A stretch of DNA of 64,000 nucleotides from Escherichia coli (GCF_044324875.1 NZ_CP172185.1); one strand, 5' to 3'. Positions 8,560-11,686 are shown, counted from the stretch's first letter. Notes: generated by a model not told the origin, from the letters alone. Numbers and translations are program-made.

Positions 8560-8660
8560 AATGACTTCCTTTTCAAAATGACTGCAAATTATGGGTGCGG
8601 TTTAGAAAATACTCATAATTTAGCAGGCGTTATGTAAGAAAGTGTAACTCTGTATAAGTT

Positions 8661-8891
8661 TTATTTAAGTTTGGGCTCGTAAGGTAAACGTGACAGATTG
8701 ACCGAAGCCAAACGGTGGGCGATAAGCCGCTCGCGAAACCAGCTGCGCAAATGTTCAGGCTGTTCACGTTCAACCGCTTCAGCGATCACCGGCATATTGT
8801 AGCGTTCTTTAAATGCCACCCCGGCCGCCGCCAAATCGACATTCACTTTATCCATTTCTGTTTGATCCAGTTTAGCCAGATTCTTCAGCAT
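8661..8891 (-). CDS. holE: DNA polymerase III theta subunit
   Basis: 76 aa from [40 protein letters not shown]; the ORF track shows a longer N-terminally extended frame. Confidence 0.85.
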
Positions 8892-9029
8892 TCTTAATCT
8901 CCTCATCATTCGCGGGCAAAAGTTACTAAGAGTGAGCCTGGATGGCAAGCCGGAATTGATGATCCTCGACTCAGACATTAGACAAGGTTATGCTCTGTAA
9001 AAAAGTTATTACAAAAAGGAATAGATAAT

Positions 9030-9404
9030 ATGGCTTCAACTGCACGCTCCCTTCGCTACGCGCTGGCAATCCTGACCACTTCGTTGGTGACACCTTCCGT
9101 CTGGGCACATGCGCATTTAACGCATCAGTATCCTGCGGCAAACGCGCAAGTGACAGCTGCCCCGCAGGCAATCACTTTAAACTTCTCGGAAGGCGTTGAA
9201 ACAGGATTCAGTGGTGCAAAAATCACGGGGCCAAAAAACGAAAATATTAAAACATTACCGGCGAAGCGGAATGAGCAGGACCCAAAGCAACTGATTGTTC
9301 CACTGGCCGATTCGCTGAAACCCGGAACCTACACCGTTGACTGGCATGTTGTTTCGGTGGACGGGCATAAAACGAAAGGACACTACACCTTTAGCGTGAA
9401 ATAA
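9030..9404 (+). CDS. yobA: Periplasmic copper-binding protein, CopC family
   Basis: 124 aa with signal peptide; HxxxH-containing CopC-like sequence. Confidence 0.85.
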   Translation: MASTARSLRYALAILTTSLVTPSVWAHAHLTHQYPAANAQVTAAPQAITLNFSEGVETGFSGAKITGPKNENIKTLPAKRNEQDPKQLIVPLADSLKPGTYTVDWHVVSVDGHKTKGHYTFSVK

Positions 9405-9407
9405 ATC

Positions 9408-10280
9408 ATGCTGGCGTTTACCTGGATCGCGCTGCGATTTATCCATTTCACCTCGCTGATGCTGGTCTTTGGCTTCGCAATGTACGGTGCCTGGCTGGCT
9501 CCCTTAACGATTCGTCGCTTGCTGACGAAGCGTTTTCTGCGTTTACAACAACACGCTGCCGTCTGGAGTTTGATCAGTGCCACGGCAATGCTCGCCGTTC
9601 AGGGCGGGTTAATGGGAACGGGATGGACAGATGTATTTTCGCCAAACATTTGGCAGGCTGTTTTGCAAACGCAGTTTGGTGGCGTCTGGTTATGGCAAAT
9701 TGTTCTCGCCCTCGTAACGTTGATCGTCGCCCTTATGCAACCGCGGAATATGCCACGTTTGCTGTTTATGCTCACTACCGCGCAATTTATTCTGCTGGCG
9801 GGAGTCGGCCATGCGACGCTGAATGAAGGGGTAACGGCGAAAATCCATCAGACTAATCACGCGATTCACCTGATTTGTGCGGCGGCGTGGTTTGGGGGAT
9901 TACTGCCGGTGCTCTGGTGTATGGAACTCATCAAAGGCCGTTGGCGACACCAGGCTATTCAGGCGCTGATGCGTTTTTCCTGGTGCGGGCATTTTGCGGT
10001 GATCGGCGTACTGGCAAGCGGCGTGCTTAATGCATTGTTGATTACCGGATTTCCCCCCACGCTTACGACTTACTGGGGCCAACTCTTATTGCTCAAAGCC
10101 ATCCTGGTGATGATTATGGTGGTCATTGCGCTGGCTAATCGTTATGTTCTTGTACCGCGCATGAGGCAGGATGAAGATCGTGCGGCACCCTGGTTTGTGT
10201 GGATGACTAAACTCGAATGGGCGATAGGTGCGGTAGTGCTGGTGATCATCAGCCTGCTTGCGACTCTCGAACCTTTTTGA
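9408..10280 (+). CDS. yebZ: CopD-family inner membrane copper protein
   Basis: 290 aa polytopic membrane protein 3 bp after yobA. Confidence 0.85.
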   Translation: MLAFTWIALRFIHFTSLMLVFGFAMYGAWLAPLTIRRLLTKRFLRLQQHAAVWSLISATAMLAVQGGLMGTGWTDVFSPNIWQAVLQTQFGGVWLWQIVLALVTLIVALMQPRNMPRLLFMLTTAQFILLAGVGHATLNEGVTAKIHQTNHAIHLICAAAWFGGLLPVLWCMELIKGRWRHQAIQALMRFSWCGHFAVIGVLASGVLNALLITGFPPTLTTYWGQLLLLKAILVMIMVVIALANRYVLVPRMRQDEDRAAPWFVWMTKLEWAIGAVVLVIISLLATLEPF

Positions 10281-10292
10281 TGGATTACGAAA

Positions 10293-10634
10293 ATGATGAA
10301 AAAAAGTATTCTGGCGTTTCTGTTACTCACCAGTTCTGCAGCGGCGCTGGCGGCACCGCAGGTGATTACCGTCAGCCGTTTTGAAGTGGGTAAAGACAAA
10401 TGGGCGTTTAATCGCGAAGAGGTGATGCTGACTTGCCGACCGGGTAATGCTTTGTATGTCATCAACCCAAGTACCCTCGTGCAGTATCCTTTAAACGATA
10501 TCGCACAAAAGGAAGTTACCAGTGGGAAGACTAAAGCCCAGCCCATTTCGGTGATTCAGATTGATGATCCTAACAATCGCGGCGAAAAAATGAGTCTGGC
10601 ACCGTTTATAGAACGAGCTGAAAAACTCTGTTAA
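10293..10634 (+). CDS. yebY: Periplasmic protein YebY (DUF2511)
   Basis: 113 aa with signal peptide; third gene of the yobA-yebZ-yebY cluster. Confidence 0.8.
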
Positions 10635-10663
10635 TTACCTAAAATAACCTTTTGATTTCCAAT

Positions 10664-10706
10664 AAAAAAACCGCCTCAGTTCTTTCACCAGAACGGGCGG
10701 TTTTTA
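10664..10706. terminator. Intrinsic terminator after yebY (may also terminate antisense RyeA)
   Basis: accgcctcagttctttcaccagaacgggcggt stem followed by ttttt. Confidence 0.5.
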
Positions 10707-10792
10707 ACATTTAAGCTGATGACCACCGCGCTTTTTATTGACCATTTTGCACGCAAACTGGAAAACCTGGCGTCGTCATCTATTCTTAAAGG

Positions 10793-10895
10793 GCAAGGCA
10801 ACTAAGCCTGCATTAATGCCAACTTTTAGCGCACGGCTCTCTCCCAAGAGCCATTTCCCTGGACCGAATACAGGAATCGTGTTCGGTCTCTTTTT
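10793..10895 (+). ncRNA. sdsR: SdsR (RyeB) Hfq-dependent sRNA; antisense RyeA/SraC expected on the opposite strand across the same locus
   Basis: Recognised sequence GCAAGGCAACTAAGCCTGCATTAATGCCAACTTTTAGCGCACGGCTCTCTCCCAAGAGCCATTTCCCTGGACCGAATACAGGAATCGTGTTCGGTCTCTTTTT, ending in a terminator hairpin plus U-tract; located in the yebY-pphA intergenic region as in K-12. Confidence 0.7.
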
Positions 10896-11029
10896 ATCTG
10901 TTAAAAGCCAGAAGCATTCCCTTCGCTGACTTTATAGTCAACCATAACACACACTCTACTGTCTGAGTCCAGCGTTTTTTAACATTCTTGTTAAGATTAT
11001 GTGATCTTTAGCGCGGGAGGAAAATATTG

Positions 11030-11686
11030 ATGAAACAGCCTGCGCCCGTTTATCAGAGAATTGCGGGTCATCAATGGCGACATATCTGGCTTTCAGGCGA
11101 TATACACGGTTGTCTTGAGCAGTTGCGCCGCAAATTATGGCATTGTGGTTTTGATCCGTGGCGAGATTTACTTATCTCAGTGGGAGACGTTATCGATCGT
11201 GGGCCGCAAAGTTTACGTTGCCTGCAGTTACTGGAACAACATTGGGTTCGTGCGGTAAGAGGCAATCATGAACAGATGGCGATGGATGCGCTGGCATCCC
11301 AGCAGATGTCTTTATGGTTGATGAATGGCGGCGACTGGTTTATTGCGCTGGCAGATAATCAACAGAAACAAGCGAAAACGACGCTGGAAAAATGTCAGCA
11401 TTTGCCCTTTATTCTTGAAGTACACAGTCGCACCGGCAAACATGTTATTGCTCATGCCGATTATCCAGATGATGTTTATGAATGGCAAAAGGACGTTGAT
11501 TTGCATCAGGTCTTGTGGAGCCGCTCGCGATTAGGTGAACGCCAAAAAGGGCAGGGAATTACAGGTGCTGATCATTTCTGGTTTGGTCATACACCGTTGC
11601 GCCATCGCGTGGATATTGGCAACCTGCATTATATTGATACAGGTGCTGTCTTTGGGGGCGAACTGACTGTTGTGCAATTGCAATAA
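11030..11686 (+). CDS. pphA: Serine/threonine protein phosphatase 1
   Basis: 218 aa from MKQPAPVYQRIAGHQWRHIWLSGDIHGC; GDxHG and GNHE metallophosphatase motifs. Confidence 0.85.
   Translation: MKQPAPVYQRIAGHQWRHIWLSGDIHGCLEQLRRKLWHCGFDPWRDLLISVGDVIDRGPQSLRCLQLLEQHWVRAVRGNHEQMAMDALASQQMSLWLMNGGDWFIALADNQQKQAKTTLEKCQHLPFILEVHSRTGKHVIAHADYPDDVYEWQKDVDLHQVLWSRSRLGERQKGQGITGADHFWFGHTPLRHRVDIGNLHYIDTGAVFGGELTVVQLQ

Follow-up and report, generated by a model that had tools for sequence, protein, structure and literature searches.

The genes yobA, yebZ and yebY at positions 9030-10634 are the known chromosomal AZY operon of E. coli, which has been characterised both structurally and functionally and to which the DNA analysed here adds only an allelic variant. 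They lie in a window (the whole stretch of DNA that was analysed) of 64,000 nucleotides from Escherichia coli (GCF_044324875.1, NZ_CP172185.1). The locus is best explained, with a probability that can be put at roughly 85%, as a copper uptake module of the CopC/CopD type with a third, DUF2511-family component. This reading draws on domain and equivalog matches, collinearity with K-12, invariant residues in all three proteins, a conserved gene order, the match of YebY to a solved structure (PDB 7N0J), published experiments, an FnrS pairing site and a terminator.

The original prediction described a tight three-gene unit with spacers of 3 and 12 bp, and the ORF list of the window places three plus-strand open reading frames at exactly the predicted positions (Table 1). 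The yobA-yebZ spacer is ATC (3 nt) and the yebZ-yebY spacer is TGGATTACGAAA (12 nt). The features that mark an AZY operon (copC-copD-DUF2511 order, one strand, short spacers and one terminator) are all present, and yobA-yebZY has been given as a single operon in published work (Myers et al. 2013, PMC3688515). The upstream neighbours exoX, yobB and holE are on the minus strand and the downstream neighbour pphA is on the plus strand, with yebW and yebV also named among the flanking genes. At 51.0%, the GC content of the yobA-yebZ-yebY stretch is on a par with the 50.3% of the window, and so a foreign origin is not suggested. No second DUF2511, CopC or CopD copy was found within the window. Antisense and overlapping ORFs across positions 9030-10634 are without support and represent ordinary ORF-caller noise. 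Because of the 12-nt spacer, yebZ and yebY share a reading frame, such that YebZ and YebY would be fused if the yebZ stop codon were lost. This shared frame explains the rare YebZ-YebY fusions noted in the literature (PMC8689200) as well as protein P0071, which bears both domains.

Table 1. Coordinates of the features of the AZY locus in the window
Feature	Position	Strand	Description
yobA	9030-9404	+	124 aa, predicted periplasmic CopC-family Cu(II)-binding protein
yebZ	9408-10280	+	290 aa, predicted CopD-family inner-membrane copper importer
yebY	10293-10634	+	113 aa, predicted periplasmic DUF2511 protein
holE-yobA divergent intergenic region	8892-9029	+	138 bp; includes the yobA Shine-Dalgarno and the greater part of the FnrS pairing site
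Intrinsic terminator hairpin	10666-10705	not assigned	A-run and T-run on its flanks

From holE through pphA, the window aligns collinearly and without indels to K-12 MG1655 (b1841-b1839). The K-12 AZY operon (yobA b1841, yebZ b1840 and yebY b1839) is alike in genes, order, lengths and spacers; it also has holE upstream and SdsR/RyeA and pphA downstream, and it has the same functional residues and FnrS site. The encoded proteins are 97-99% identical to those of K-12, with one to three substitutions per protein (YobA Q85P; YebZ A40T, I93V and Q173E; YebY A76T, N81K and P96R), none of which touches a functional residue. The residues central to the published work (YobA H27, D111 and H113, YebZ H135 and H154, and YebY C48 and C113) are all found in the window's proteins, and other E. 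coli carry the very same YebY allele. Of 5426 complete E. coli genomes, 5425 carry the stretch according to a megablast search with positions 8600-11000 (best identity 99.7%), and the matched genomes are annotated as holE / yobA / copD / yebY.

The prediction that YobA is CopC-like, YebZ CopD-like and YebY a DUF2511 protein is upheld by Pfam and NCBIfam scores far above the curated cut-offs. YobA has the conserved domain PF04234 (CopC; E-value: 2.5e-27, 96.1 bits against a cut-off of 23.3) and matches over its full length the NCBIfam equivalog "CopC domain-containing protein YobA" (E-value: 4.7e-79, 262.3 against 129). It also scores above the cut-off of the NCBIfam equivalog "copper homeostasis periplasmic binding protein CopC" (E-value: 2.1e-41). 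A PDB sequence search finds CopC and PcoC proteins as its nearest solved relatives, and the CopC domain of YcnJ (9C14) is detected as well. The predicted signal peptide ends at VWA26, which makes His27 the mature N-terminus. YobA has all three Cu(II)-site residues (H27, D111 and H113). These do not vary among 78 sequences, and the same holds for other positions including A28, H29, V110 and G112. Methionine is absent from the mature protein (residues 27-124), which therefore lacks a Met-rich Cu(I) site. Judged from its sequence, YobA belongs to the Cu(II)-only class of CopC proteins on every feature that was checked (profile, Cu(II)-site residues and no Met-rich site). K-12 YobA binds one Cu(II) with a KD of about 3 nM and does not bind Cu(I) (Hadley et al. 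2021 JBC, PMC8689200).

YebZ has the conserved domain PF05425 (CopD; E-value: 1.5e-26, 93.3 bits against a cut-off of 32.1) and matches the NCBIfam copper_CopD equivalog ("copper homeostasis membrane protein CopD"; E-value: 5.8e-89, 298.6 against 195) over residues 4-290. YebZ has both periplasm-proximal histidines, H135 and H154, which do not vary across the 78 sequences, and H13 is among the further invariant positions. A simple Kyte-Doolittle scan gives seven separate segments of at least 1.6 and, by eye, a weaker one below this threshold at about residues 45-65; the model in the literature has eight transmembrane helices (PMC11923076). No solved structure for YebZ is detectable by sequence in the PDB. 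In the DigH paper (PMC12288456), yebZ is mentioned solely because a deletion ends there, so the paper has no bearing on the operon.

YebY has the conserved domain PF10709 (DUF2511; E-value: 6.7e-44, 148.7 bits against a cut-off of 21), which is matched over the complete profile (1-87 of 87), and no NCBIfam model matches the protein. Its hydrophobic N-terminus is a signal sequence ending in ALA20. The cysteines C48 and C113, the latter at the C-terminus, are invariant in the 78 sequences and are also kept in Proteus and in phage homologues; W37 and YPLN (residues 65-68) are likewise invariant in the 78. In a PDB sequence search, YebY is 97% identical to 7N0J (three substitutions; E-value: 1.7e-56), the 1.8 Å crystal structure of the K-12 protein (Hadley et al. 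2021 JBC, PMC8689200). An AF2 model of the window's YebY (pLDDT 89.5, built from a 38-sequence alignment) superposes on 7N0J with an rmsd of 0.5 Å and a TM score of 0.98. Both the domain assignment and the predicted structure thus agree with published work. K-12 YebY is a periplasmic monomer whose C48-C113 disulfide is seen in 7N0J, and it binds copper weakly (KD 50-100 µM), non-specifically and only once this disulfide is reduced (PMC8689200).

In Foldseek, the sole other fold match to the YebY model is MlbQ (2MVO/6QFP; E-value: 8e-4, TM score 0.63, rmsd 1.8 Å over 90 columns), with nothing else at an E-value below 0.1. MlbQ was found by the fold search alone and was not recovered by a PDB profile search with the YebY alignment. 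According to the model, then, YebY adopts the YebY/MlbQ fold, a four-stranded antiparallel sheet with helices around it. MlbQ is a lantibiotic NAI-107 self-resistance lipoprotein of Microbispora, and its disulfide is reported to be equally placed (PMC8689200). It differs from YebY in sequence (22% identity), in its lipoprotein nature and long unstructured linker, and in gene context, which consists of ABC transporters for lantibiotic immunity rather than CopC and CopD (PMC8689200). The description of YebY as a protein with a poorly defined role is only partly accurate: its structure has been solved and an effect damping copper import has been published (PMC8689200, PMC11923076), so that the description still holds for its molecular mechanism only.

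The signals surrounding the operon are also consistent with the K-12 system. The holE-yobA intergenic region differs from that of K-12 at 1 of 138 nt, and yobA is preceded by a good Shine-Dalgarno match (AAGGAA, 9016-9021). Nucleotides 39-70 of K-12 FnrS pair with positions 9003-9033 of the window, spanning the Shine-Dalgarno sequence and the start codon. The pairing energy is -22.0 kcal/mol, and only 1 of 1000 shuffled targets (-9.3 +/- 2.8 kcal/mol) pairs as well. Repression of yobA-yebZY by FnrS/FNR is published (Myers et al. 2013, PMC3688515; PMC8689200). A sigma-70 consensus scan found no promoter site in the holE-yobA intergenic region. Two "copper boxes" upstream of yobA are mentioned in the literature (PMC8689200). 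An approximate PcoR/CusR-type consensus (TGACAAnnTTGTCA) has no match with up to three mismatches in the same intergenic region, which is a weak negative, and across the window it has 35 matches against 30 expected, which is chance level. The hairpin that follows yebY has a predicted folding energy of -19.1 kcal/mol (z = -5.9; none of 200 shuffles as stable). It was missed by a simple terminator scan on account of its interrupted stem and was recovered by RNA folding. Downstream is the sRNA pair SraC/RyeA (minus strand; Rfam E-value: 2e-41) and SdsR/RyeB (plus strand; 1.3e-22). The K-12 RyeA annotation maps to positions 10662-10933 on the minus strand, and this 3' end at 10662 suggests that the hairpin serves both convergent transcripts, AZY and RyeA.

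A scan of 100,044 species genomes identified 292 relatives, of which the best 80, all Enterobacteriaceae, were analysed. The order yobA-yebZ-yebY is found in 77 of these 80 species, while one locus is truncated, so that the cluster is conserved as had been predicted and the co-occurrence of yebY with CopC and CopD agrees with published work. The yobA-yebZ spacer ranges from -1 to 6 nt and the yebZ-yebY spacer from 11 to 29 nt, with one exception of 111 nt, and the key residues of all three proteins are invariant across 77 other Enterobacteriaceae species. Salmonella and Klebsiella have the same trio in the same tight spacing and share the holE-side synteny. In Proteus mirabilis, the same three genes are flanked by unrelated ones, which encode a ferritin and an MlaD-repeat protein, and this suggests that the trio travels as a module. 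In the literature, approximately 52% of YebY homologues adjoin copC and copD and about half are outside AZY contexts (PMC8689200).

When the three proteins are compared across the same genomes, YebY ranks as the most conserved, by mean pairwise identity (YebY 79%, YobA 63%, YebZ 57%), by the proportion of invariant positions (39%, 23% and 8%) and by median dN (0.13, 0.30 and 0.41), in a sequence comparison that somewhat favours YebY since the loci were picked by YebY similarity. At this locus, Silvania confinis and S. hatchlandensis lack yobA and the greater part of yebZ; holE is separated from an intact yebY by approximately 170 bp, which include a remnant of the yebZ 3' end. Between the two species, yebY has a dS of 0.39 and a dN of 0.024, and the resulting dN/dS of 0.06 indicates that the gene is kept under purifying selection.

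The function of the operon has been studied with the K-12 genes. At native expression, deletion of all three (Delta-AZY) brings a 3-4 fold drop in the signal of a cytoplasmic copper reporter that depends on CueR, while single deletions leave the signal unchanged (Palmer et al. 2025 Commun Biol, PMC11923076). Overexpression of YebZ increases cellular copper in a specific and energy-dependent manner, and in this protein H135A lowers copper uptake and H154A abolishes it (PMC11923076). YobA raises uptake, and YebY co-expressed with YebZ lowers accumulation; a "safety valve" role for YebY was proposed by Palmer et al. 2025 (PMC11923076). The damping effect of YebY on copper rests on overexpression (PMC11923076). 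The weak, non-specific and reduction-dependent copper binding of YebY makes a copper-based brake mechanism doubtful. Delta-AZY loses 80-90% of mar operator activity, with mar activation requiring both AZY and copper, and it shows a copper-dependent gain in sensitivity to norfloxacin, ciprofloxacin and ampicillin (PMC11923076). It has no copper-tolerance or oxidative-stress phenotype (PMC8689200). NDH-2 activity in membranes requires YobA and YebY (PMC8689200).

The proposed model for the AZY proteins is as follows. YobA would be exported and cut after Ala26, so that a nanomolar Cu(II) site would be built from His27, its free N-terminal amine, Asp111 and His113. YobA may then dock on the periplasmic face of the eight-helix YebZ near His135 and His154 and pass its copper on, and YebZ would carry the metal into the cytoplasm in an energy-dependent step. 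YebY, as a small, disulfide-locked periplasmic protein with an MlbQ fold, would reduce the net uptake of copper, probably serving as a brake when copper is high. Imported copper would bring about Cu-dependent derepression of MarR, and hence of the mar regulon, leading to quinolone and beta-lactam tolerance. YobA and YebY may in addition support the activity of the membrane enzyme NDH-2. Under anaerobic conditions, the operon would be repressed by the sRNA FnrS pairing over the yobA ribosome-binding site. The experimental steps of this model were established on the K-12 proteins, and we infer from 97-99% sequence identity that they transfer to those of the window. Metal transfer from YobA to YebZ and the manner of YebY inhibition are likewise matters that we, like the published authors, infer.

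Alternative explanations have also been weighed for the locus as a whole. The CopABCD system of Pseudomonas syringae and the plasmid-borne PcoABCD system also encode CopC- and CopD-family proteins side by side. YobA exceeds the NCBIfam CopC equivalog cut-off, and its closest solved relatives are the PcoC and CopC structures, which could point to classical copper resistance of this kind, with CopC and CopD helping in the sequestration or detoxification of surplus copper. Those systems, however, have CopA, CopB and CopRS partners; no multicopper oxidase (copA/pcoA), copB/pcoB or copRS gene adjoins the window locus, where the neighbours are holE, yobB, exoX and pphA and where there is an extra DUF2511 gene. 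Mature YobA has no Met-rich Cu(I) site, and the K-12 operon confers no resistance phenotype: between 0 and 2 mM copper, growth of Delta-AZY is like that of wild type, and a copA mutant is not rescued by overexpression (PMC8689200). A resistance function of this type is thus highly improbable. Another related system is YcnJ, the fused CopC-CopD copper importer of Bacillus subtilis, which uses the two domains for copper uptake (PMC11923076), as is proposed here. YcnJ is a single fused chain, whereas the CopC and CopD proteins of the window are separate polypeptides from genes 3 nt apart, and the window locus has a DUF2511 protein instead of a YcnI/DUF1775 partner. It is also conceivable, although distinctly unlikely, that the main role of the operon is chaperone-like delivery of copper to cuproproteins, such as NDH-2, that are in the membrane or face the periplasm, with import into the cytoplasm being a side effect of overexpression. 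The dependence of NDH-2 activity on YobA and YebY fits such a role (PMC8689200), as do the unresponsiveness of the cytoplasmic reporter to single deletions (PMC11923076) and the soluble nature and nanomolar Cu(II) affinity of YobA (PMC8689200). The fall in the CueR-dependent signal in the triple deletion was nevertheless recorded at native levels, H154A in YebZ abolishes uptake, and mar activation needs both AZY and copper (PMC11923076), all of which argue for import. Delivery and import are not mutually exclusive.

A further alternative concerns YebY and is compatible with the rest of the AZY model. YebY may function chiefly independently of copper and of YebZ, as an envelope binder of a non-metal ligand (such as a peptide antibiotic, a bacteriocin or an envelope component) in the way of MlbQ, the sole structural relative of YebY that has been characterised, its influence on copper import being secondary. 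In addition to the poor copper binding of the protein, which requires reduction of a structural disulfide, this alternative is favoured by the higher conservation of YebY relative to its partners, by the retention of an intact yebY under selection in Silvania, by the roughly half of all homologues that are found outside AZY contexts (PMC8689200) and by homologues encoded by phages. The latter, which are 32-34% identical to YebY, are found in 186-like phages of the P2 family (PsP3 orf28, SEN1, SW9, Midge and others). In ten phage records, the homologue is always located between the cI repressor and integrase genes on the same strand, and the cI-DUF2511-int arrangement is present in 20 of 20 IMG/VR contigs. 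The phage proteins retain the signal peptide, W37, C48, YPLN, G78-K79 and C113. A "XerD / CI repressor" context is mentioned in PMC8689200, which does not discuss a phage lysogeny module. On the other side, yebY follows yebZ at 11-29 nt, or 111 nt in one case, in 77 of 80 species (among the best 80 of 292 relatives) and also follows yebZ in Proteus, and this proximity across species argues for a shared function. Cells that co-express YebY and YebZ contain less copper, and NDH-2 activity requires YebY. YebY has no known non-metal ligand, the conservation comparison carries the bias already described, and the loss of yobA and most of yebZ from Silvania is established at this locus only. On balance, a role for YebY that is chiefly independent of copper is somewhat unlikely.

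The retention of yebY without yobA and most of yebZ, together with the homologues in phage lysogeny modules, nonetheless suggests that the role of YebY may exceed its link to YebZ. The Silvania genes, the conservation of YebY above its partners and the fixed phage arrangement could be accounted for if the YebY family has a conserved envelope function that operates without CopC and CopD, for example through a non-metal ligand in the manner of MlbQ and its lantibiotic. The 186-like phages might then use their homologue as a lysogenic-conversion factor, either for host protection or for tuning of the copper/mar signalling of the host. This suggestion is a tentative one that we consider rather unlikely.

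As a CopC/CopD-type uptake module, AZY is one of the few defined routes by which copper enters the bacterial cytoplasm, and it is tied to mar-dependent multidrug tolerance. The conservation of YebY, its retention in Silvania and its phage homologues hint at an additional role that is independent of its partners; these hints fit the doubt that the authors of PMC8689200 themselves expressed about YebY as a physiological copper binder, and they provide testable leads.

YebY is markedly more conserved than either of its partners, YobA and YebZ. Among the 77 species with all three genes at loci L009-L088 (the best 80 of 292 relatives from the genome scan), mean pairwise identity is 79% (YebY), 63% (YobA) and 57% (YebZ), and invariant positions make up 39%, 23% and 8%, respectively. 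This comparison carries some bias because similarity to YebY was the criterion for inclusion. Silvania confinis and S. hatchlandensis have lost yobA at this locus by deletion, along with all of yebZ except a remnant of its 3' end, and have an intact yebY (dN/dS between the two species: 0.06).

The yebZ and yebY genes share a reading frame and are separated by a TGA stop codon and 12 nt (window 10278-10295), such that one stop-codon change would fuse them. Rare YebZ-YebY fusion proteins are found in the literature, and the protein match P0071 has both PF05425 (CopD-like) and PF10709 (DUF2511). The shared frame across this junction probably explains both the rare fusions and P0071.

Upstream of the operon, two "copper box"-like sites have been placed at -34 and -22 (PMC8689200). 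The holE-yobA intergenic region (8892-9029) had no matches to a PcoR/CusR-type box consensus (a weak negative result), and a consensus scan of the same region found no sigma-70 consensus promoter. Two flanking ORF predictions were rejected as ORF-caller artefacts: a 105 aa holE ORF from an upstream ATG (8661-8978, minus strand; annotated HolE is 76 aa, 8661-8891) and a pphA ORF with a TTG start at 11027 (11027-11686, plus strand; the annotated start is ATG at 11030).

Two overlapping sRNAs, SraC/RyeA and SdsR/RyeB, are encoded antisense to each other between yebY and pphA. As the hairpin that terminates yebY is also where RyeA has its 3' end, deletions of yobA-yebZ-yebY could disturb RyeA termination. 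The ryeA/ryeB locus has reportedly been described as an insertion hot spot (by Balbontin et al. in 2008). Integrase and XRE-regulator genes are located shortly 3' of the yebY/SdsR region in Salmonella and Silvania. By comparison with K-12, the ryeA/ryeB locus of the window is collinear and without insertion.

Features at the yebY locus and at related loci (L-handles: loci of other genomes or phages, own coordinates)
Feature	Source	Position	Strand	Basis or remark
SraC/RyeA sRNA	window	10755-10899	-	Rfam, 2e-41
SdsR/RyeB sRNA	window	10796-10895	+	Rfam, 1.3e-22
RyeA	window	10662-10933	-	transferred K-12 annotation
SdsR/RyeB	window	10792-10895	+	transferred K-12 annotation
yebY terminator hairpin	window	10666-10705		same place as RyeA 3' end
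yebZ-remnant/yebY locus	S. confinis, L062	3830-4339
yebZ-remnant/yebY locus	S. hatchlandensis, L077	3829-4339
Integrase/XRE-regulator stretch	Salmonella, L006	4345-7336
Integrase/XRE-regulator stretch	Silvania, L062	4660-5745
DUF2511 homologue	phage PsP3, L002	2405-2743
DUF2511 homologue	phage Midge, L003	2408-2746
DUF2511 homologue	IMG/VR contigs, L089-L108

DUF2511/YebY homologues are also encoded by 186-like phages of the P2 family, where their gene is flanked by the cI repressor gene on one side and the integrase gene on the other. This gene order was found in 10 phage records and in all 20 of 20 IMG/VR contigs. The phage proteins are 32-34% identical to YebY and retain the signal peptide and both cysteines. 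These genes look like accessory genes that are expressed in lysogeny.
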